A stretch of DNA of 64,000 nt from an uncultured Acidobacteriota bacterium (GCA_963707935.1 CAVPRN010000001.1:589030-653029); one strand, 5' to 3'; counted from the first letter of the stretch, positions 9,066 to 29,254 are shown. The notes: generated by a model not told the origin, from the letters alone. A program made the numbers and translations.

Positions 9066-11482
<2,417 letters not shown>

Positions 11483-20488: not shown

Positions 20489-22168
20489 ATGTGGAACCTG
20501 CTGCTCGCGCTCTCCCTCTCCGCGGCTCCAGCCGACCCCGTGTCCGCATACGTCGAGAAGTACTTCGAGACGTACCCCGGCCGCGCCACCGAGGCGGGCC
20601 GGCACGACCGGGATCGGGCGCTCGAGGATCTGACCCCCGAGCGCCTCGCGGCCTGGATCGACTTCAACCGCAAGACGCTCGAGGCGCTCCGGAGGCTGCC
20701 GCCCTCGACCGCCGAGGCCGAACGCCTGGACGCCGAGCTCCTCGGAAGCGAGATCGAGTGGCAGCTCTTCCAGCTCGAGACGTGCGAGCGCCCGTCGCGG
20801 GATCCGCTCTTCTGGACCGGCATCGCCGGCAACGCGACCGTCTTTCTCCTCGTCCGGGAGGACCGTCCGCAGGCGGAGCGCCTCGCGGCGGCGCGGGCGC
20901 GCGTGCGGGAGCTGCCGCGCTTCTGCCGGCAGGCCCGGGAGACGCTGTCGAAGACACCGCCCGCGGAGATCGCCGCCGACTTCGCGCGCATCGCGGCCGG
21001 CCAGGCGCGGGCCTCGGCGCAGTTCTACCGGGAGGGGTTCGCGGGCCTCTTCACCGGCGAGGAGAAGGCGGCGGCGTCGAAGGAATCCGCCGGAGCGGCG
21101 GCGGCCCTGGAGGAGCTCGCGGCCTTCTGCGACGACCTCTCGCGCCGCGCGACCGGCTCGCCGCGCCTCGGAGCGACCTACCGCGATGCCCTGCGCATCC
21201 AGACCGGACAGCCCGATCCCGACGCGATGCTCGCGCGGGCGGTCGCGGACCTCGAAGCGAAGAGGAAGGAAGCGGCGGACTACGGCCGCTCGGTCTGGAA
21301 GGAGATCTTCCCGAGTGTCGAGCCGCCGTCCGGCGATCGCGACGTGCTCGCGAAGCTCTTTGCGCGGGTTTCGGCCGACCGGGCGAAGACGGTCGAGGAG
21401 TTCGTCGCCGACTATCGCAAGCAGGTGTCGGACCTCGACGCCTTCCTCCACGCGCACGAGGTCGTGACGCTTCCCGACCCGCTCACGCTCTACGTCGGGC
21501 GCTCCCCCGGCTTCTTCGTCGGCCAGGCCGTCGGCGGCGTCTACGCCGCGGGGCCGTACGCGCCGGACGCGAAGACGCTGTGGTTCCTACCGACGCCACC
21601 CGACGCGGCGACCCCCGAAGAGAAGGACGGCTTCTTCCGCGACTTCAACCACCACTTCAACGTCATGATCACGCCGCACGAGATCCTGCCGGGCCATTAC
21701 CTGCAGCTGAAGGTCGCCGCGCATCAGCCGCGCAAGGTCCGGGCGCTCTTTCCCGATGGCGTCTACGTCGAGGGGTGGGGGACCTTCTGCGAACGGCTGA
21801 TGCTCGATCTCGGATGGGGCGCGCCGCTCGACCGCCTGGCGCACCTGAAGAAGCAGATGGAGAACATCGCGCGCGCGATCGTGGACGTGCGCGTGCACAC
21901 GAAGGAGATGCCGCGGGCGGAGGTGCTCCGGTTCGTCAAGGAGGACGCGCTCCAGGACGAGCAGTTCGCCTCCAACATGTGGACGCGCGCGATCACGACT
22001 CCGACGCAGATCACGACGTACTGGCTCGGATACCGGCAGGTGACGGATCTCTACGAGGACGTGAAGAAGGCGCGAGGCGAGAAGTTCCGCCTGAAGGAGT
22101 TCATGGACGCGATGCTCGCGGGCGGGCCCGTGCCGGTGGCGAGATATCGAGAGAAGCTGCTGCGGTAA
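20489..22168 (+). CDS. DUF885-family protein (putative metallopeptidase-like, secreted)
   Basis: Signal-like N-terminus and the conserved block HHFNVMITPHEILPGHYLQ characteristic of DUF885. Confidence 0.8.
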   Translation: MWNLLLALSLSAAPADPVSAYVEKYFETYPGRATEAGRHDRDRALEDLTPERLAAWIDFNRKTLEALRRLPPSTAEAERLDAELLGSEIEWQLFQLETCERPSRDPLFWTGIAGNATVFLLVREDRPQAERLAAARARVRELPRFCRQARETLSKTPPAEIAADFARIAAGQARASAQFYREGFAGLFTGEEKAAASKESAGAAAALEELAAFCDDLSRRATGSPRLGATYRDALRIQTGQPDPDAMLARAVADLEAKRKEAADYGRSVWKEIFPSVEPPSGDRDVLAKLFARVSADRAKTVEEFVADYRKQVSDLDAFLHAHEVVTLPDPLTLYVGRSPGFFVGQAVGGVYAAGPYAPDAKTLWFLPTPPDAATPEEKDGFFRDFNHHFNVMITPHEILPGHYLQLKVAAHQPRKVRALFPDGVYVEGWGTFCERLMLDLGWGAPLDRLAHLKKQMENIARAIVDVRVHTKEMPRAEVLRFVKEDALQDEQFASNMWTRAITTPTQITTYWLGYRQVTDLYEDVKKARGEKFRLKEFMDAMLAGGPVPVARYREKLLR

Positions 22169-22199
22169 GCCGTTGGCCGGCCGGCCGGCTCGACAGGGA

Positions 22200-22523
22200 T
22201 GGCGTCCGGTCAGGCTTCTCCGGGCGTAGGGGCGGGGCTCGTCCCCGCCCGCCTGAATCGAGCGTGAGAGCGCCTGCACCGCCGGGCGGCCACAAGGCCC
22301 GCCCCTACACCCGCCACGGCGAAAGTCGCGCGCCGCGCGAATTGGATGCCCTCCAGATGTCGGGGCGGGGCTCGTCCCCGCCCGGCCTGAATCGAGCGTG
22401 AGAGCGACTGCACCGCGGGCGGCCACGAGGGCCGCCCCTACACCCACCACGGCGAATGTCGCGCGCCGGCGGGGAACGGATGCCCTCCGGATGTCGGGGC
22501 GGGGCTCGTCCCCGCCCGGCGAT
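22200..22523. repeat. REP/BIME-like array 2, same family and orientation as array 1
   Basis: GT(A/C)GGGGCGGGGCTCGTCCCCGCCCG copies start at 22226, 22359 and 22493. GGGCGGCCACRAGGSCCGCCCCTAC sits at about 22282 and 22412. The roughly 133-bp units share the linkers CCTGAATCGAGCGTGAGAGCG.CTGCACCGC and CCACGGCGAA.GTCGCGCGCC. Confidence 0.85.
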
Positions 22524-23265
22524 CTAGAATACGAACACTCCGATCGCCGCCGCGAACATCAGCAGCGCGGTCGCCGCGACGGCCGCGCGCGCGAGCGGCG
22601 AGCTCGGCTGGCCCTTCATCAAGGCGCGGTCCGAGGCAACGGCGAGGATGGCGACGAGGAGAAACGGCGCGAGGAGACCGTTCGCGACGGCGCTCCCGTA
22701 TAGAGCCCGCACGGGGTTGACGTCGGCGAAATCGAGCGCCACGCCGGCCGCCGTCGAGAGCGTCATGACGGCGTAGAAGTAGCGCGCCCCGGAGAGCTTC
22801 TGGTCGAGCCCCTGTTTCCGACGCCGAAGAGCACGACGAAGAGGTGCGAATTCCATCCCGTCAGCATTTCGGCGGCGTCCGCCATGCCGGCGAGGTCCGC
22901 CGCGATGTTGATCGTGTTGGCGAGCAGAAGCGCGACCGACACGGCGACGAGCACGCGCTTCGGGAACTTGCGCCGCAGCGCCCCCGCGAGGCCGCGCCCG
23001 GTCACCATGCCGATCCGCGCGCACATCATCTGCACCGCGGCCATGAGGGGCCAGGTCAGGAGCGCCGTCCAGAGGAGCGTCGTGCCGAGCTGGGCGCCCG
23101 CGACCGAATAGGTCGCCACCCCGGAAGGATCGTCGTCCGCCGCGCCCGCGACGATGCCGGGCCCCAGGGCCTCCCGCCACGCGCCGGAAGGGCGTCGGCG
23201 GAGGCGGCGTCTGGTCGATTTCGAGTTGCGGCTCGGGCACGCGCGGCTTTCTCCATCGGAAAACT
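22524..23265 (-). pseudogene. Nramp-family divalent metal transporter remnant (frame changes and a missing central part)
   Basis: The N-terminal part GPGIVAGAADDDPSGVATYSVAGAQLGTTLLW...ANTINIAADLAGMADAAEML is in one frame. The C-terminal part YFYAVMTLSTAAGVALDFADVNPVRALYGSAVANGLLAPFLLV...IGVFVF is in another. Together they give only about 225 aa, against the roughly 400+ aa expected for 11-TM Nramp proteins. Confidence 0.65.
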
Positions 23266-23311
23266 TCGGCGCGGGAGATACGATTCCGAGAGATTCGAAG
23301 GAGAGACCACG

Positions 23312-24712
23312 ATGAACTTCGATCGCCGCCGCTTCCTCGCAGCCTCCGGGGCCGCCGCCGCGGCCTCGTTGTCCGGCGCTTCCGCGTCGTCGACGCCGCC
23401 AGCATCCGGCGCCGGCACCCGCTCGGCTTCGCTGTTCCTGACCGAGGACGACGGCCTGAAGCCCGCGACGGTCGATCGCCTGCCGCTCGGGTGGCACCAG
23501 GGGAGGCTCCAGGCGCTCCAGGCGAAGCTCCGCGAGCGGGATTACGCGGGCCTGCTCCTGCGCGACCGGTGGAACATCATCTACTTCACGGGTCTCTACT
23601 TCACGACGACCGAGCGCCCCTTCCACGTCTTCCTGCCGACCGACCGGCTCGCCGCGATCTGGTTCTACCCGAGCCTCGACCGCGACCTCGTCTCGAGCTG
23701 GTGGGCGACGGACGCCGAGTCCTACTTCGATTTCCGCCACGCCGACGGTGCCTTCCCCAACGAGGGCCGCGTCCAGCAGGGAGCGAGCGTCGATCTCTTC
23801 GAGTGGATGGCGAAGGGCCTCAAGAAGCGCGGCCTGGACGGCAAGCGGATCGCGACGGACTGGGAGCTCTCGCGTTCCGAGCAGTCGACCGTCGGCCGGG
23901 TCTTCACGAAGGAAACGCGTTTCGACTCGGTCGCGGAAGAGTGCGAGCGGATGCGGATGGTGAAGACCCCCGAGGAGCTCGCGCTCTGGCGCCGCGCCTA
24001 CCGCATCTTCGACGAGACGCACGCCTTCGCGCGCGACCTCCTGCTCGAGAAGGGAACCGATCTGACGGACTACCAGCTCGCCATGGCCGCAACCGAGCAC
24101 GGCATGGGACTCCTCATGAAGGACATCCGGCGCGACGGCCGGCCGCACACGGCGGTCGGGATCGAGCTCGAGATCGGCTGCCGGGTCGGTGCGGGCAACG
24201 CCTACCCGCACCCCAACCAGTTCCACTACAACCGGATCGAGAAGGGGAAATCGCTCCAGATCGACGGCGGCGTCGCGATCGCCGGCTGCGGAGGCGAGCT
24301 CTACCGCCAGTTCCTGATCGCCCCGACCACCGACCACCAGAGGAAGGTGTGGACGGTCGTGCGCGACTGCTGCCTGATGCAGAAGGACCTTTCCCGGGAA
24401 GGCGTCGCCTGCTCGACGGTCGCGTACCGGATCCACCAGTACCAGATGAAACAGGGGGTCCAGAAGTACATCTACCACCGGCCCGCCCACGGGATGGGGA
24501 TGGAAGGGCATCAGCCGCCGTACCTCGCGCTCGGCGACTACACGATGCTCGAGCCGGGGATGATCTTCTCCGTCGAGCCGGGCCTCTTCGATCCGGATGT
24601 CGGGTTCGGCGTGAACTTCTCCGACGGCTTCGTCGTGCAGTCGGGGGACCGGCCTTCGCTCCAGATGTCGCGGCTGCCCTGGTCGGAGGAGTGGTGCCTG
24701 GTCACGCTGTAG
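23312..24712 (+). CDS. M24-family (creatinase/prolidase fold) protein with twin-arginine signal, paralog 1
   Basis: RBS GAAGGAG. Tat motif MNFDRRRFLAASGAAAAA. Pita-bread fold blocks MRMVKTPEELALWRRAY, HRPAHGMGMEGHQPP and PGMIFSVEPGLF. Confidence 0.8.
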   Translation: MNFDRRRFLAASGAAAAASLSGASASSTPPASGAGTRSASLFLTEDDGLKPATVDRLPLGWHQGRLQALQAKLRERDYAGLLLRDRWNIIYFTGLYFTTTERPFHVFLPTDRLAAIWFYPSLDRDLVSSWWATDAESYFDFRHADGAFPNEGRVQQGASVDLFEWMAKGLKKRGLDGKRIATDWELSRSEQSTVGRVFTKETRFDSVAEECERMRMVKTPEELALWRRAYRIFDETHAFARDLLLEKGTDLTDYQLAMAATEHGMGLLMKDIRRDGRPHTAVGIELEIGCRVGAGNAYPHPNQFHYNRIEKGKSLQIDGGVAIAGCGGELYRQFLIAPTTDHQRKVWTVVRDCCLMQKDLSREGVACSTVAYRIHQYQMKQGVQKYIYHRPAHGMGMEGHQPPYLALGDYTMLEPGMIFSVEPGLFDPDVGFGVNFSDGFVVQSGDRPSLQMSRLPWSEEWCLVTL

Positions 24713-24762
24713 GCCGCCGATTCGCTGGTACGATTCGCTGCGATTCTCGAAGGAGGTTTCGA

Positions 24763-26154
24763 ATGACCTGGAACCGGCGCCGTTTCCTCTCGACGTCGGG
24801 AGCCGCGGTGGGCTCGCTCGCCCTGGCGTCCTCCGCGCGCGCGGCCGCCGCGCCCGCTTCCCGATCGGCCGCCCTCTTCCTGACGGAGGACGACGGCCTG
24901 AAGCCCTCGACCCTCGATCGGCTGCCTCTCGAGTGGCACCAGGCGCGCCTGAAGCTGCTGCAGGGGAAGCTCCAGGAAGACGGGTACGCCGGGATCCTGC
25001 TCGGGGACCCGATGAACATCATCTACTTCACCGGGCTCTTCTTCACGTCCACGGAGCGCCCGTTCCGCGTGTACCTGCCGGCCGACCGCCTCGCGGCCAT
25101 CTGGTTCGTCCCCGGGATCGACCGGGATTCGGTCAAGAGCTGGTGGGCGACGGAGGAGGAGGTCTACTTCGACTTCCCGCACGCCGAGGGAGGCTTCCCG
25201 AACGAAGGGAAGGTCCAGCAGGGTGAGACCGTGGATCCCCTCGAGTGGGCGTTTCAGGGCTTGAAGAAGCGCGGGCTCGACGGCAAGAAGATCGCGACGG
25301 ACTGGGAGCTGTCGCGCGGACAGCTCGCGAAGGTCGGCAAGGTGTTCTTGAAGGACACGAAGATCGAGTCGGTCGCGGACCGCTGCGAGAAGATGCGCAT
25401 GGTCAAGACGCCCGAAGAGCTCGCCCTCTGGCGCCGCGCCTACCGCGTCTTCGACGAGACGCACGCCTTCGCGCGGGACCTGCTCCTCGAGAAGGGGACC
25501 GACCTGACGGATTTCGAGCTCGGCATGGCGGCGACCGAGTGGGGCACCAATCGGCTCATGGAGTCGATCAAACGCGACGGGGGCTCGCACACCGCGGTCG
25601 GGATCGAGTGCGAGATCGGTGTGCGGGTGGGACGCGGAACGGCGTATCCGCATCCGAACCAGTTCCACCACAACAAGATCCAGAAGGGTCAGGCGCTCCA
25701 GATCGCGGGAGGCGTCGGCATCGCGGGCTGCGGCGGCGAGCTCTATCGGGCGTTCCTGATCGCCCCCTGGACCGATCAGCAGAAGAAGCTCTGGACGGTG
25801 TCGCGCGACTGCTGCGTCATGCAAAAGGACCTTTCGCGCGCGGGGGTGGCCTGCTCGACCGTGGCCTACCAGATCCACCGGCACCAGGTGAAGAACGGGG
25901 TGCAGAAATACATCTACCACCGGCCGGCACACGGCATGGGGATGGAGGGGCACCAGCCCCCGTACCTCGCGCTCGGGGACTACACGATGCTCGAGCCCGG
26001 GATGATCTTCTCGGTCGAGCCGGGTCTGTACGACCTCGAGAATGGATTCGGCGTCAACTTCTCCGACGGATTCTTCGTCCAGGCGGGGGACAAACCGTCG
26101 CTCCAGATGTCGCGCCTGCCCTGGTCGGAAGAGTGGTGTCTGGTCAAGCTCTGA
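24763..26154 (+). CDS. M24-family protein with twin-arginine signal, paralog 2 (tandem duplicate)
   Basis: Tat motif MTWNRRRFLSTSGAAVG. Long runs are identical to paralog 1, for example YIYHRPAHGMGMEGHQPPYLALGDYTMLEPGMIFSVEPGL and PSLQMSRLPWSEEWCLV. Confidence 0.8.
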   Translation: MTWNRRRFLSTSGAAVGSLALASSARAAAAPASRSAALFLTEDDGLKPSTLDRLPLEWHQARLKLLQGKLQEDGYAGILLGDPMNIIYFTGLFFTSTERPFRVYLPADRLAAIWFVPGIDRDSVKSWWATEEEVYFDFPHAEGGFPNEGKVQQGETVDPLEWAFQGLKKRGLDGKKIATDWELSRGQLAKVGKVFLKDTKIESVADRCEKMRMVKTPEELALWRRAYRVFDETHAFARDLLLEKGTDLTDFELGMAATEWGTNRLMESIKRDGGSHTAVGIECEIGVRVGRGTAYPHPNQFHHNKIQKGQALQIAGGVGIAGCGGELYRAFLIAPWTDQQKKLWTVSRDCCVMQKDLSRAGVACSTVAYQIHRHQVKNGVQKYIYHRPAHGMGMEGHQPPYLALGDYTMLEPGMIFSVEPGLYDLENGFGVNFSDGFFVQAGDKPSLQMSRLPWSEEWCLVKL

Positions 26155-26167
26155 GGGATTCGGCGAT

Positions 26168-26839
26168 ATGAAGCTCTGGAAGAAGATCCTCCTCGGCCTC
26201 GGGCTCCTCGTCCTCGCGGTCGTCGCCTACGGCGTCGTCTCGTTCGGCCCCAAGAACGTCATCGGGATGCTGCGCTACGACCAGCGCGAAAAGGGGAAGC
26301 TGAAAGTCGGCGATGCGGCTCCGGATGTCGCGCTCCTCGCTCTGGACGGCTCGACCCCGGTGAAGCTCCAGGATTCGATCGGCGGAAAGCCCCTCGTCCT
26401 CGTCTTCGGCAGCTTCACCTGACCCCCCTTCCGCCGCTCGGTCGAGCGCGTGCAGGCGATGAACCGCAAGTACGGAGAGCGGGTGCGGTTCCTGACCCTC
26501 TACATCAAGGAGGCGCATCCCGAAGACGAGTGGCAGATGGAATCCAACGCGAAGGACAAGGACAACGTCTGCTACAAGCAGCCCCGGACCACGGCGGAGC
26601 GCGTGGCGATCGCCAACGACTTCGTCAAGCGATTTCACTACGACATCCCGCTCGTCGTCGATCCGATCGAGAACCGCGCCAACGCCGTCTACGCGGGCTG
26701 GCCCGAGCGCTTCTACATCGTGGACGAGCAGGGCACGATCGTCTACAAGGGCAAGCCCGGCCCCTTCGGCTTCCACCCCGAGGAGGTCGAGGCCTGGCTC
26801 GCGAAGCGCTTTCCGGAGAGCACAGCGGCGGGAGGCTAG
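26168..26839 (+). CDS. Membrane-anchored iodothyronine-deiodinase-like thioredoxin-fold selenoprotein (in-frame TGA = Sec at 26420-26422)
   Basis: ORFs 26042..26422 and 26450..26839 share one frame. The joined sequence is KPLVLVFGSFT-U-PPFRRSVERVQAMNRKYGERVRFLTLYIKEAHPEDEW ... YAGWPERFYIVDEQGTIVYKGKPGPFGF. This matches the deiodinase signatures FGSxTUPPF, YIxEAHPxDxW and ERxYVI..G.I.Y.G..GP. N-terminal TM helix KKILLGLGLLVLAVVAYGVV. Confidence 0.85.
26432..26450 (+). promoter_or_regulatory. Candidate bacterial SECIS hairpin
   Basis: CG(C)CGCUC-GGUC-GAGCGCG forms a 7-bp stem with one bulged C and a GGUC loop. It starts 9 nt after the UGA, so the loop G-U sits 22-23 nt from the U of UGA. Confidence 0.6.
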
Positions 26840-27573
26840 ACCGGGCGCCGCAGCTCTTCCTCCGATAGGCAAGGGTTGATCTCGAGCCACAGGATCTGTG
26901 TTCTCTGCATCTGTCGGCCGGACTCGAGCTCCACCTGTTCGGAGGCGAAGGGAAACAGGACGCCGTCGACGGGGCGGAAGTCCGAATAGCGGTTCTCGAT
27001 CCAGACCGGCCGCGGATCGACGTCCGGGTGGAGCGGGCGCAGGTCGCGCTGGATCGTGATCTGACCGGTCACGGTGTCGATCCAGCGCCACGTCCGAAAG
27101 CCATCCGAGAGCTCGAGCCGCAGCACGTCGTACTGCCGGCCGGCGGAAGTCCGATGTCCCTCGAGCACGATCCGGTGGCCGAGGCGCGGCAGCTCCTGGA
27201 GGCCGTACAGGTTGAAGAGCCGGCCGTGCTCGAGCGCGGCGACGCCATCCTCGGTCGCGTCCCGAGGAGGTCCGCTTTTGCCCATCGACCAGCCTCCCCG
27301 CTCGTCCAGCCCTTCGGAAAAGACGCGGCGTCCCTGAAGGAAGATGTCCACGCGCACGCGGCCCTCGCGTTCGGCCAAATAGGTGCCTTCCACCGCGAAG
27401 CCCGGCTCTTCGACCCGCAGGCGCACCCGTATCGAGCGGGTCGCTTCCACCGCCGCGGCGCCTCCACGGGATTGCGCGTTTCGGGCGAGGACATCCTCGA
27501 GCGAAGGGGCGCCTGCGGCCACGCGCCACAGGACCAGGCAGGCTCCGAGGCTCTTCCATCCGCACGCTGTCAT
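26836..27573 (-). CDS. Secreted hypothetical protein (possibly a LolA-like lipoprotein-sorting fold)
   Basis: Signal-like MTACGWKSLGACLVLWRVAAGAP and a beta-rich body. The family assignment is tentative. Confidence 0.45.
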   Translation of the reverse strand: MTACGWKSLGACLVLWRVAAGAPSLEDVLARNAQSRGGAAAVEATRSIRVRLRVEEPGFAVEGTYLAEREGRVRVDIFLQGRRVFSEGLDERGGWSMGKSGPPRDATEDGVAALEHGRLFNLYGLQELPRLGHRIVLEGHRTSAGRQYDVLRLELSDGFRTWRWIDTVTGQITIQRDLRPLHPDVDPRPVWIENRYSDFRPVDGVLFPFASEQVELESGRQMQRTQILWLEINPCLSEEELRRPV

Positions 27574-27605
27574 CCTGCGGATTGGACGGTCCGCCGCGGA
27601 TTCGG

Positions 27606-28118
27606 TTAGGAAGGCCCCGCCGTCCCCCGGCGGAACTCGTTTCGCCTCGTCCAGACGAAGACGAGGATCGCCAGGTTGACGGCGAAGAGCAGGTAGCCGC
27701 GCGGGTCGTGCGGGCGCTCGGCGATCTCGCGGAGCTCGACGGGGATTCCGAGCGCGGTCAGGAAGATCGTGAAGTACGTCGCCCACCAGATCCGCGCCGC
27801 GAGGAAGGATCCCTCGGCGCCGAAGACGATCCCGATCAGGATCGTCGCCAGACCGAGAGACTGGACCTGCCCGGGCGTGAAGCGCTCGAAGAACTCCTGG
27901 AGCTTCTCGACCCCGAAGCGGTGCGCGTTGACGCCCAGCATCTCCGCGAGCTCCATCGTCGGATCCTTCCGGGAGAGGTGCGCGATGTGGAGAACGGTCG
28001 CGCCGAGCAGGAGGAAGCCGATCGCTTTCAGATACTTGAAGACAATGACCCCGATGAATCCGGCCGTCAGCTTCGGCAGGCGTTTCGAGTCGCGCGGGAG
28101 GTCCGTCTCTTCGGTCAT
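27606..28118 (-). CDS. DUF2127-like integral membrane protein
   Basis: Four predicted TM helices, including FKYLKAIGFLLLGATVL near the N-terminus and a WWATYFTIFLTALGIPVELREI block. Confidence 0.55.
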   Translation of the reverse strand: MTEETDLPRDSKRLPKLTAGFIGVIVFKYLKAIGFLLLGATVLHIAHLSRKDPTMELAEMLGVNAHRFGVEKLQEFFERFTPGQVQSLGLATILIGIVFGAEGSFLAARIWWATYFTIFLTALGIPVELREIAERPHDPRGYLLFAVNLAILVFVWTRRNEFRRGTAGPS

Positions 28119-28248: not shown

Positions 28249-29254
28249 ATGAAGAGACGGGTGATCGGTCTGCTGATCTTCGCAGCGGCGGTCTCGGCCA
28301 GGGCGCAGGAGCCGGTGCTCCGCTACGTGCCGAAGCACGAGGAGTTGAAGTACACCTTCGGCGGGGTCGCGCCGACGCACCGGATCAAACCGGGGACGCG
28401 GATCGTCACCTGGACGGAGGACTGCTACGACGGCGGGCTCACGAAGCGGGGACAGAAGCCGAGCGAGGTCCTCCAGCCCGGCCACGACAATCCGCAGACG
28501 GGCCCCTTCTACGTCGAGGGGGCGGAGCCGGGGGACACGCTCGTCGTCCGCATCGAGAAGCTCGAGCCGGCGCGCGACTACGCCTTCTCCGTCATGTTCC
28601 CGGGATTCGGCGCCCTGAAGGGCACCGACAAGACGGCGATCCTGAACCCGGAGCTGCCGGAGACTCGCCTGGTACTACGAGGTGGACCGCGGCAAGGGCG
28701 TCGCCCGCACGCGCTCGCAGGACGGGAAGCACTCGTGGGAGGTGCCGCTCGCGCCTTTTCTCGGCTGCCTGGGAGTCTCGCCGGCCTGGGGCGAAGCCCG
28801 CTCGACGATCGTGCCGGGCGACTTCGGCGGCAACATGGACTGTCCCGAAGTGCGCGCCGGCAACACCGTCTATCTCGGCGTGCGCGTGCCGGGCGCCCTC
28901 GTCTCCTTCGGCGACGGGCACTACGCCATGGGAGACGGCGAGATCATGGGCACGGCGATCGAGGGCGCGATGAACGTCGAGCTGACCGTGGACCTGATCA
29001 AGAAGAAGGAGACGCCCTGGCCGCGGATCGAGAACGCGGAATGGATGATGTCGCTCGGCGCCGCGCGGCCGCTCGAAGACGCCGCCCGCATCGCGTTCAA
29101 GGACATGGTGCGTTGGGTCGCGGAGAAGACGGGCATGGGCGAGCTCGACGCCTACGAGTTCGTCTCCCAGAATGCGAAGGCGCCGATCGTCGAGCTCGTG
29201 GACCCCGAGTACACGGTCCTCGTCAAGATCCCGAAGAGCCGTCTGCCGAAATAG
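28249..29254 (+). CDS. Secreted acetamidase/formamidase-family amidohydrolase, with one apparent +1 frameshift near 28668
   Basis: Signal MKRRVIGLLIFAAAVSARA. Family blocks GPFYVEGAEPGDTLVV and, after the frame change, WYYEVDRGKG...GNMDCPEVRAGNTVYLGV...GDGHYAMGDGEI. Confidence 0.8.

Follow-up and report, generated by a model that had tools for sequence, protein, structure and literature searches.

In the window, by which we mean the whole 64,000-nucleotide stretch of DNA that was analyzed, two genes for M24-fold proteins (here M24a and M24b) are followed by a gene for a deiodinase-like selenoprotein (Table 1). The coordinates in the initial annotation are exact, as are the spacers of 50 and 13 nt that it gave between these three + strand genes. 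The surroundings of the trio consist of genes for exported hydrolases, namely a secreted amidohydrolase, a DUF885 protein and an FmdA-like amidase in addition to the M24 proteins themselves. The convergent gene which closes the co-directional run had no match in Pfam or NCBIfam. At the other end lies what is left of an Nramp gene, to which the intact Nramp of a related locus (L033) could be matched by tblastn only over residues 1-112 and, in another frame, 304-401. Intact Nramp genes adjoin the M24 gene, divergently transcribed, in six related loci (L026, L031, L032, L033, L035 and L036).

Table 1. Features of the M24-selenoprotein locus, with positions counted from the first nucleotide of the window.
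Feature	Position	Strand	Remarks
M24a	23312-24712	+	466 aa; Creatinase_N and Peptidase_M24 (Pfam, E=1.9e-24); fast-evolving copy of the tandem pair
M24b	24763-26154	+	463 aa; Creatinase_N and Peptidase_M24 (Pfam); conservative orthologue of the single-copy genes of relatives
Deiodinase-like selenoprotein gene	26168-26839	+	223 aa; PF00837, 132.5 bits; motif FGSFT-U-PPF
UGA selenocysteine codon	26420-26422	+	In-frame TGA; SelB and tRNA-Sec in the genome
Bacterial SECIS hairpin CGCUC-GGUC-GAGCG	26435-26448	+	Begins 12 nt past the UGA
Predicted Tat signal peptide of M24a, MNFDRRRFLAASGAAAAASLSGASA	23312-23389	+	RR is family-wide; predicted cleavage site
-10-like hexamer TACGAT	23279-23284	+	27 nt 5' of the M24a start codon; putative promoter element
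-10-like hexamer TACGAT	24729-24734	+	Within the 50-nt M24a-M24b spacer
Convergent gene, no assigned family	26836-27540	-	Gene call; overlaps the selenoprotein stop codon
Nramp remnant	22524-23152	-	5' of M24a; tblastn fragments

The third gene had been described as encoding a membrane-anchored selenoprotein. It is a true selenoprotein gene, for which a SECIS element, SelB (312 bits, over the cut-off) and a tRNA-Sec with anticodon tca were all found, and its product has a predicted transmembrane anchor at residues 7-25 (mean Kyte-Doolittle value 2.6) with an N-terminal flank carrying +3 charges. The match to T4_deiodinase (PF00837) has an E value of 2e-38 and lies far above the cut-off of 27 bits, while the NCBIfam model deiodinase_rel, whose cut-off is 250 bits, scores 198.8 and is covered at positions 177-340 of 347, its C-terminal half. 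Nearly all selenoprotein orthologues of the class and the phylum retain the in-frame TGA. The apical loop GGUC of the SECIS hairpin is present in 51/51 orthologues, and its stem covaries, with a compensatory change of CG to GC in three sequences and of UA to UG in six. Distant orthologues have a 7-bp stem of other sequence at roughly the same location. The folding energy of the hairpin is by itself not significant (z = -0.44), and no Rfam family matched it.

The FGSxT-U-PPF active-site motif resembles that of animal deiodinases. Bacterial deiodinase-like selenoproteins were reported in the Sargasso Sea selenoproteome (Zhang et al. 2005, PMC1088965), and deiodinase-like proteins are among the listed prokaryotic selenoprotein families (PMC13188914). 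The protein in the window shares with them PF00837, a selenocysteine in a thioredoxin-fold active site and a SECIS element with a G in its small apical loop just past the UGA, whereas the published motif is UxxC and that of the window's protein is U-P-P-F. It is a member of this bacterial family and does not differ from it in any essential way. In the literature on the family we found no published activity for any bacterial member, and the selenoprotein remains an orphan enzyme.

M24a and M24b are 74% identical over their full length, in keeping with their first description as close paralogs. PF00557 scores 87.1 and 79.5 bits for the two proteins (cut-off 23) and PF01321 scores 31.3 and 29.6 bits (cut-off 22). 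With a structure model of medium quality (pLDDT 68), Foldseek gave a probability of 1.00 against prolidases and creatinases, the top matches being 4fkc, 1wn1 and 1chm. None of the named NCBIfam M24 equivalogs (PepQ, PepP, YpdF-type aminopeptidase, DddP and MetAP) was matched above its cut-off; the best score was 57 bits against 393, and the others likewise fell far short.

Alignment to the prolidase structure PDB 4rgz and to 82 family sequences bore out the suspicion of an altered metal site in both M24 proteins, as the canonical metallopeptidase set of Asp, Asp, His, Glu and Glu is absent there. Against 4rgz, M24a has D and M24b has A at the position of the first Asp ligand. The second Asp is replaced by Glu in both proteins (GCGGE), the metal-ligand His and the first Glu are retained in both, and the last Glu is replaced in both by Ser, NFSD being found in place of RIED. 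Four of the five positions are Glu, His, Glu and Ser in 82/82 sequences of the M24 subfamily to which the two proteins belong, while the fifth, that of the first Asp, can be A, E, S or D. Strictly invariant throughout this set are also H300, C326, E329, H389, H393, H400, E422, S437 and the string YPHPNQ, and M24a, though faster-evolving, retains every one of these residues. Because the invariance extends over 82 homologues from 79 loci, the altered ligands are family traits and not chance. The active site appears to have been remodelled, with Glu, His and Glu kept, the last Glu exchanged for Ser and the first Asp apparently dispensable, so that catalysis with a single metal ion or with none is predicted. 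A single metal might sit where His171 and Glu204 coordinate it in E. coli MetAP; alternatively, the invariant His300 might serve a creatinase-like, metal-free catalysis. With the structure model only of medium quality, both options are read from sequence. M24a and M24b would most likely be hydrolases of small peptide-like or amide substrates.

The twin-arginine N-termini quoted in the initial annotation, MNFDRRRFL in M24a and MTWNRRRFL in M24b, are correct, and both contain RRxFL. In each protein a Tat motif of the S/T-R-R-x-F-L type, a mildly hydrophobic stretch and a putative AxA-type cleavage site can be recognized (DRRRFLAASGAAAAASLSGASA in M24a and NRRRFLSTSGAAVGSLALASSARA in M24b). The RR pair is present in all 68 N-termini covered in the set of 82 homologues. 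The Pfam TAT_signal model gives 16.6 bits for M24a, under its cut-off of 22.7, and does not match M24b; it matches 11 of 16 subfamily members, every one under the threshold. TatC is encoded in the genome (211 bits, over the cut-off), and M24a and M24b are probably exported in folded form into the periplasm by this pathway. M24 enzymes had been described in the initial annotation as normally cytoplasmic; in this organism an exported M24 protein is no exception, a third one with a Tat signal, having canonical ligands, being encoded in the genome.

The proposal that the three genes form an operon stands in part. They are on the same strand with short gaps, and a weak consensus scan of 22100-27700 found no terminator-like site; against a simple operon, a conserved -10-like motif precedes M24b. 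This motif in the 50-nt spacer suggests an internal promoter, and the three genes therefore need not be a single transcription unit. G.TAC.AT is invariant in 12/12 upstream regions of the clade in which M24 and selenoprotein genes adjoin, and TAnnAT hexamers (TACGAT, TAGCAT, TAGGAT) are found roughly 30-39 nt before the ATG at many, though not all, Thermoanaerobaculia loci. Each M24 gene would thus retain a -10-like promoter element of its own. The 13 nt between M24b and the selenoprotein gene are too few to house a promoter and contain no terminator, and the selenoprotein gene is probably reached by read-through from the M24 promoters.

The M24 genes that adjoin a selenoprotein gene form one clade in the M24 tree (96/98). 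Within it M24b groups on short branches with L026_2 and the single-copy genes of L032, L020, L033 and L009, while the long stem branch (0.2) that leads to M24a is shared with L026_1 and L001_1. The tandem pair is present in three of the four genomes of the genus and also in L001 and L036; the fourth genome of the genus (G068) and most members of the subfamily are single-copy. The tandem copy arose within the window's genus, and M24a is the fast-evolving one. Because the same motif precedes M24a and the single-copy orthologues, the TACGAT in the spacer appears to have been duplicated with the gene. The gap from M24 to the selenoprotein gene measures 13-26 nt in 8 of the 10 genomes of the clade, a tightness that a lineage-specific functional link could explain as well.

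The three genes had been put forward as a module, and their neighbourhoods were compared among relatives. Of 301 genomes of the class, 76 encode the selenoprotein, 20 a member of the M24 subfamily and 13 both. Adjacency of the two was found among these 301 genomes only in four of the window's genus (G000, G068, G240 and G292 of g1) and one of a sister genus (G288 of g7), and in four others (G092, G040, G172 and G056) the genes are on the same contig but 14-73 kb apart. Viewed from the M24 side, a selenoprotein gene is present at only 11 of 79 genome loci of the subfamily, all from close Thermoanaerobaculia relatives and all sharing the whole block DUF885-(Nramp)-M24-Dio-DUF2127-FmdA-ADH. Even there the junction can be broken, an unrelated TonB_C-like gene being inserted between the two in L032 and L033. 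In other genera of the same family the selenoprotein gene is preceded by FmdA (gap of 8-13 nt), by a gene of 321 aa or by a divergent response regulator; since its neighbours differ between genera, they give no clue to its function. At the 32 deiodinase-like loci surveyed in the phylum's other classes, no gene of the M24 fold was found within 6 kb. At 52 loci outside the family, a canonical PepP gene was found near the selenoprotein gene in two lineages (at 2-3.5 kb in f3 and at 92 nt in f8), slightly above the roughly 0.7 expected by chance. The genes are not neighbours in relatives beyond the genus-level clade, and with adjacency limited to two genera, that of the window and a sister genus, the arrangement looks local.

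We therefore consider it probable that the trio reflects a genus-level rearrangement among exported-hydrolase genes and not a conserved functional module. In the genus of the window and one sister genus, a gene of a widespread M24 subfamily would have been placed immediately 5' of the selenoprotein gene; within the window's genus it would then have been duplicated in tandem along with about 40 nt of leader. The selenoprotein itself is probably an independently distributed, membrane-anchored thioredoxin-fold selenol enzyme, likely to face the periplasm. A closer association would exist if the periplasmic M24 pair and the selenoprotein acted in sequence on one class of substrates, for example if M24 cleaved a peptide to free an amino acid, halogenated or modified in another way, which the selenoprotein then reduced or dehalogenated. 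The shared strand, the 13-nt gap with no terminator found, the junction held short in eight genomes of the clade, the predicted periplasmic orientation of both products, the M24-fold genes near the selenoprotein gene in two further lineages and the likeness of the active-site motif to that of animal deiodinases all speak for this. However, the M24 subfamily is missing from 63 of the 76 selenoprotein genomes, and the selenoprotein from 7 of the 20 M24-subfamily genomes; adjacency does not extend past two genera or into the 32 loci of other classes, the pair is split in L032 and L033, and the upstream partner of the selenoprotein gene changes from genus to genus. Already weakened by this absence of conserved co-occurrence, sequential action seems improbable to us. 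The tempting story of a selenoprotein coupled to a periplasmic peptidase is removed as unsupported, and the case shows how thoroughly adjacency needs checking before genes are declared a module.

Two further alternatives concern the M24 proteins themselves. In two-domain M24 enzymes like prolidase and creatinase, which are dimeric, the N-domain of one subunit forms a lid over its partner's active site, and the Tat pathway exports pre-assembled oligomers. M24a and M24b could accordingly have been retained as an obligate heterodimer, with M24a as a specialised or regulatory subunit, and the persistence of the pair in most genomes of the genus and in L001 and L036 would agree with this, as would the intact set of invariant residues in the faster-evolving M24a. 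Yet both copies come with a Tat signal and a promoter-like motif of their own, and because most subfamily members, including that of G068, are single-copy, a homodimer is sufficient; we think such a heterodimer unlikely, if a little less so than a conversion of the proteins into non-enzymes. That conversion, by which catalysis was lost with the metal ligands and periplasmic binding or scaffold proteins remained, has precedents in the non-peptidase M24 homologues Ebp1/PA2G4 and the N-domain of Spt16, and indeed two to three canonical ligands out of five have been exchanged and the RxED block has disappeared. It is nevertheless very improbable: a set of residues in catalytic and substrate-binding positions shows no variation across phyla (82/82), creatinase is active with none of the metals, and M24-subfamily genes recur beside catabolic hydrolase genes.

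What stays of interest is the M24 subfamily, which is large, cross-phylum, always export-tagged and uncharacterised. It comprises more than 1000 protein clusters, spread over Acidobacteriota, Binatia, Methylomirabilota, Steroidobacteraceae, Woeseiaceae and Sphingomonas, is present in 325 species genomes, and carries the invariant signature GCGGE / HRPAHG / EGHQPP / FSVEPG / N-x-S-D. Its names in public records are all generic ("M24 family metallopeptidase", "Xaa-Pro aminopeptidase"). In three lineages its recurrent neighbours belong to the amidohydrolase superfamily, with three separate Pfam families represented, and the Sphingomonas loci add genes for a TonB-dependent receptor, a DHDPS-like protein and a GntR regulator. 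The cultured Sphingomonas flavalba and S. zeicaulis each have a member. To judge by its residues, the invariant site would be unable to bind the usual two metal ions. Taken jointly, these observations allow the tentative reading, which we hold possible but do not expect to prevail, that the Tat-signal M24 subfamily is an undescribed class of periplasmic enzymes in which a two-metal peptidase site was rebuilt for other chemistry. The rebuilt site would then hold one metal ion or a Cys/His/Glu arrangement and would not perform Xaa-Pro cleavage, the enzymes would have a role in nutrient-scavenging loci with secreted amidohydrolases and TonB-dependent receptors, and in the genus the fast M24a, whose first ligand position has reverted to Asp, would be evolving towards a new specificity. 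Once known, the substrate of the subfamily would shed light on the extracytoplasmic processing of organic nitrogen by Acidobacteriota of soils and sediments.

Several known systems share parts of this picture. The Mn-cupin MncA of Synechocystis is a Tat-exported metalloenzyme that folds and loads its metal in the cytoplasm, and M24a and M24b resemble it in bearing a twin-arginine signal on a metal-dependent hydrolase fold. The Nramp genes (Mn/Fe importers) divergent from M24 in the six related loci extend the likeness, although this neighbour is limited to one clade and is a remnant in the window. Ectoine hydrolase EutD/DoeA (PDB 6twk, 6yo9) and the DMSP lyase DddP (4b28, 4s01) have the same fold, at Foldseek ranks 25-47, and exemplify its recruitment for small-molecule C-N and C-S chemistry. 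Their similarity to the window's proteins is far weaker than that of prolidases and creatinase, NCBIfam DddP matches are weak, DddP retains the full metal-ligand set, and we know of no Tat-exported enzyme among them.

The PepQ-type prolidases or Xaa-Pro dipeptidases (MEROPS M24B) have the two-domain Creatinase_N and pita-bread fold in common with M24a and M24b, and supply the best sequence matches (E of about 1e-19 to 1e-24) and structural matches, namely 4fkc/4rgz of Thermococcus sibiricus, 1wn1/1wy2 of Pyrococcus horikoshii and 1pv9 of P. furiosus. Their substrate-site histidines, metal-ligand His and first Glu are conserved in both proteins. However, prolidases work in the cytoplasm with two metal ions held by Asp, Asp, His, Glu and Glu, whereas M24a and M24b carry a Tat signal and altered ligands, with HE changed to HQ and R-I-E-D to N-F-S-D, an identity of only about 20% and a family-specific insertion in the N-domain (residues ~121-158). 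Creatinase (creatine amidinohydrolase; PDB 1chm, 1kp0, 7yto), likewise of the two-domain fold, is also cytoplasmic and only 15-20% identical to the window's M24 proteins. It is aligned over the greatest length, C-terminal tail included (profile positions 177-456), ranks 3rd, 4th and 8th in Foldseek, and is an M24-fold enzyme that works without a two-metal centre.

The two tandem creatinase/prolidase-fold genes (M24a and M24b) and the deiodinase-like selenoprotein gene lie exactly where the initial annotation had placed them, on the forward strand at 23312-26839, with gaps of 50 nt between M24a and M24b and 13 nt between M24b and the selenoprotein gene. Its description of M24a and M24b as close paralogs also holds, the two proteins being 74% identical over their full length. 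AGGAG-type ribosome-binding sites are found ahead of both M24 genes, and a GAGGGA site overlapping the M24b stop codon is found ahead of the selenoprotein gene. Genes were called by third-codon-position G+C, and gene starts were taken from alignments because the caller cuts signal-peptide starts. Clustering of neighbours on all ORFs was rejected, as spurious antisense ORFs of the 70% G+C DNA swamped the result. The co-directional run ends at the selenoprotein gene, since a convergent gene overlaps its stop codon. This convergent gene has no Pfam or NCBIfam match and, among the loci examined, is common only to the window and its closest relative, locus L026. Because the exact M24a protein is absent from public records, locus context was taken from relatives.

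Features of the M24-selenoprotein locus and of related sequences (window positions unless another sequence is named)
Feature	Position	Strand	Remarks
Nramp pseudogene	22524-23152	-	residues 1-112 and 304-401 of the intact L033 relative, in two different frames
TACGAT -10-like hexamer	23279-23284	+	27-28 nt before M24a ATG
M24a	23312-24712	+	466 aa
TACGAT -10-like hexamer	24729-24734	+	27-28 nt before M24b ATG
M24b	24763-26154	+	463 aa
Deiodinase-like selenoprotein gene	26168-26839	+	223 codons; sole interruption TGA 26420-26422
Convergent gene	26836-27540	-	~234 aa; overlaps selenoprotein stop codon by 4 nt
Secreted FmdA/AmdA-type amidase gene	28249-29254	+	split by a single frameshift at ~28666-28669 (versus intact L020 copy)
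Inserted gene with TonB C-terminal-like end	L032 ~9410-10490; L033 9845-10489		between M24 and the deiodinase-like gene
Third Tat-signal M24 gene	G000:C5 ~2485400-2486600	+	window's own genome, outside the window

Two genes near the trio are not intact in this sequence. Relative to the intact L033 copy, the Nramp remnant is without residues 113-303, about 570 nt having been deleted from the middle; an intact Nramp gene is divergent from M24 in six related loci, among them L026, L032, L033, L035 and L036. The FmdA/AmdA-type amidase carries residues 1-141 in frame 1 and residues 143-337 in frame 2, and its frameshift could stem from an error in the sequencing and need not mark a pseudogene.

The initial annotation had suggested that the M24 pair and the selenoprotein could form a processing module, an idea that failed the neighbourhood test beyond the genus level. 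With each GTDB species represented by a single genome, scanning gave 325 loci of the M24 subfamily, and in the best 79 of these 325 the selenoprotein gene is present at 11 M24 loci only. All 11 belong to close Thermoanaerobaculia relatives, which have the entire block in common (response regulator and kinase, DUF885, in some cases Nramp, M24, selenoprotein, DUF2127, FmdA, ADH), and outside them the M24 neighbours differ from lineage to lineage. Among 301 genomes sampled from the class, 76 contain the selenoprotein gene, 20 the M24 subfamily and 13 both. Adjacency is confined to four genomes of the window's genus and one of the sister genus, g7; in four other genomes with both genes, 14-73 kb of a single contig separates them. 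Within the same family the gene ahead of the selenoprotein gene can be an FmdA-like amidase (gap 8-13 nt), a 321-aa gene or a divergent response regulator, and the sole constant neighbour is a convergent DUF2127 gene. Even within the clade, L032 and L033 have an unrelated TonB_C-like gene separating M24 from the selenoprotein gene.

We also considered whether deiodinase-like genes might be linked with M24-fold genes in general. Outside the family, the 6-8 kb flanks of 52 selenoprotein loci were searched with five M24 queries, and an M24-fold gene was found nearby in two lineages only, in both cases a canonical cytoplasmic-type PepP, 2-3.5 kb downstream of the selenoprotein gene in lineage f3 and 92 nt upstream in f8. 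In the f3 loci L122 and L124 this PepP lies 3 kb beyond a TlpA-like gene. None of the 32 selenoprotein loci of other classes had an M24-fold gene within the same flanks. A PF00557 scan of 70 genomes gave 5-8 M24 genes per 4-6 Mb genome among the matches listed, a density at which about 0.7 cases would be expected by chance among some 45 lineages. The two or three observed are not a convincing excess and, together with the 0/32 result, led us to reject a general link. As adjacency is limited to two genera in the class sample, is missing from the 32 loci of other classes, and is interrupted in L032 and L033, the three genes are not conserved neighbours beyond the genus level. The pairing brings together two gene families of independent distribution and is seen at the genus level only, with a recent tandem duplication and probably an internal promoter.

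In a maximum-likelihood tree all selenoprotein-adjacent M24 genes fall in one clade (96/98). M24b and the second tandem copy at L026 (93% identical) cluster with the single-copy genes of L032, L020, L033 and L009 on short branches, and M24a groups with the first L026 copy (91% identical) and L001_1 on a stem 0.2 substitutions per site long. From these placements, the duplication arose within the selenoprotein-adjacent group; the downstream copy has remained conservative and the upstream copy has accelerated, with all invariant residues kept. When the upstream regions of the clade were aligned, a motif, G.TAC.AT, proved invariant in 12/12, and the duplication took in the leader that contains it. 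TAnnAT variants occur 30-39 nt before the M24 ATG in many, not all, Thermoanaerobaculia loci. One or other form is found 27-39 nt before the M24 start in L001, L005, L017, L020, L026, L027, L031-L037 and L044, whatever the upstream gene, and is likely a -10 element travelling with the M24 gene. The motif emerged only from the alignment, a simple consensus scan of 22100-27700 having found no terminator-like or sigma-70 consensus sites.

These observations divide the evidence on whether the trio is an operon, as had been suggested. The tight spacing and the lack of a terminator-like site in 22100-27700 speak for it; against it, the conserved hexamer before M24b resembles a -10 element, and M24b therefore probably has its own promoter. 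The M24-selenoprotein gap is 13-26 nt in 8/10 clade genomes, and since the 13-nt gap of the window leaves no room for a promoter, the most economical reading is that the selenoprotein gene would be transcribed by read-through from M24b. The only sequencing runs found to hold part of the stretch were four DNA metagenomes, with 9-12% of sampled words, and no RNA run was found among those searched. Overall, the observation holds in every detail, and its interpretation in the initial annotation is only partly supported.

The selenoprotein itself is real. The gene matches T4_deiodinase (Pfam) at 2e-38 and reads through its TGA as KPLVLVFGSFT-U-PPF, and the genome contains both SelB (312 bits, above cut-off) and tRNA-Sec. 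A hairpin, CGCUC-GGUC-GAGCG, begins 12 nt past the UGA. Because its folding energy alone is not significant (z = -0.44) and Rfam gave no match, a covariation comparison was needed. The GGUC loop is invariant in 51 distinct orthologous sequences, including at two synonymous third-codon positions, and base pairs of the stem change from CG to GC and from UA to UG; in more distant orthologues a 7-bp stem with another sequence occupies about the same position. One in-frame TGA is kept in all but a handful of orthologues from the class and phylum samples. In one homologue, at L136 (G126:C104), Sec is replaced by Ser (codon TCG; FGSYT-S-PGF), and the SECIS hairpin is absent. The N-terminus contains a hydrophobic segment preceded by a flank with +3 charges and no negative ones, which favours a predicted N-in, C-out anchor. 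In L122 and L124 (G080 and G204) a secreted TlpA-like thioredoxin-fold gene with a CPVS motif comes next after the selenoprotein gene, in the same orientation, and its product could serve as a redox partner. This protein is a member of the bacterial deiodinase-like selenoprotein family, which was described in 2005 from the Sargasso Sea metagenome (PMC1088965). A literature search on dehalogenation by bacterial deiodinases returned only a Dictyostelium paper, which dealt with another enzyme.

The trio is of modest overall interest, and its M24 subfamily, an uncharacterised variant of a known fold, outweighs the already described selenoprotein family. M24a and M24b both match Creatinase_N and Peptidase_M24 (Pfam), with no curated NCBIfam M24 equivalog near its cut-off. 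Their best sequence matches of solved structure, at about 20% identity, are archaeal and bacterial prolidases and creatinase. An AlphaFold model from a 16-sequence alignment was of medium quality (pLDDT 68), and a fold search with it returned prolidases (4fkc, 1wn1) and creatinases (1chm, 1kp0, 7yto) with near-equal scores and could not tell one from the other. The metal site was assessed from sequence, not from the model. A word-indexed search gave more than 1000 homologous clusters, labelled generically in naming sources (e.g. "M24 family metallopeptidase", "Xaa-Pro aminopeptidase"). The 325 loci of the species scan come from Thermoanaerobaculia, other Acidobacteriota, Binatia, Methylomirabilota, Steroidobacteraceae, Woeseiaceae and the cultured Sphingomonas flavalba and S. 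zeicaulis. Literature searches on Tat-exported M24 proteins or periplasmic prolidases found nothing relevant.

No neighbour is universal to the subfamily. Amidohydrolase-superfamily genes of three different Pfam families recur beside it in three lineages. Thermoanaerobaculia have Amidohydro_3 (at L023 and L038 and, in the window, 6 kb upstream), Acidoferrales-type loci have Amidohydro_2 (L049, L052, L057), and Sphingomonas has two secreted Amidohydro_1 genes together with a TonB-dependent receptor and a DHDPS-family gene; a GntR/FCD regulator is found in related loci. The Proteobacterial loci are L075 and L078 (S. flavalba), L083 (S. zeicaulis) and L077, and their Amidohydro_1 genes weakly match a Caulobacter Xaa-Pro dipeptidase model. 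The Proteobacterial locus resembles one for catabolic uptake and occurs in cultured strains. The window cluster itself sits among genes for exported hydrolases (amidohydrolase, DUF885, FmdA). The divergent Nramp gene is a weak, clade-limited hint of an Mn or Fe cofactor loaded into M24 before Tat export. The best reading of the subfamily is a putative periplasmic hydrolase of small peptide-like or amide nutrients.

The putative twin-arginine export signal is conserved, with RR in 68/68 alignment-covered N-termini of the subfamily; Pfam TAT_signal matches 11/16 members, every score falling below the gathering score, and TatC is present in the window's genome. The initial annotation had noted that M24 enzymes are normally cytoplasmic. 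The same genome encodes a third Tat-signal M24 protein, with the twin-arginine N-terminus MLVTRRRLIVTAGAAASAA... (MLVTRRRLIVTAGAAASAAALPFTARG) and fully canonical Asp/Asp/His/Glu/Glu ligands, a candidate Tat-exported PepQ-like prolidase. For this organism, then, predicted export of an M24 enzyme is nothing out of the ordinary.

The non-canonical metal site noted at the outset is real when M24a and M24b are aligned to prolidase 4rgz. Where prolidase has its first ligand Asp, M24a has D and M24b has A; the second Asp is replaced by Glu, the ligand His and first Glu are retained, and the last Glu is replaced by Ser; HE becomes HQ, and R-I-E-D becomes N-F-S-D. Across 82 subfamily sequences from the best 79 of 325 loci, E329, H393, E422, S437, H300, H389, H400, Q401, C326, N435 and D438 do not vary. 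At the first-Asp position 44 sequences have A, 33 have E, 3 have S and 2 have D, the last being M24a and the first L026 copy. Judged from these alignments, the altered site and the Tat signal are family traits. We take the retained residues to be the equivalents of the tight-metal-site ligands and substrate-site histidines of E. coli MetAP, and the dispensable position presumably corresponds to the ligand that serves the second metal alone in that enzyme. Because the tight-site ligands are retained and the second-metal-only ligand is dispensable, the analogy with MetAP suggests a site that may hold one metal ion or support creatinase-like metal-free catalysis.
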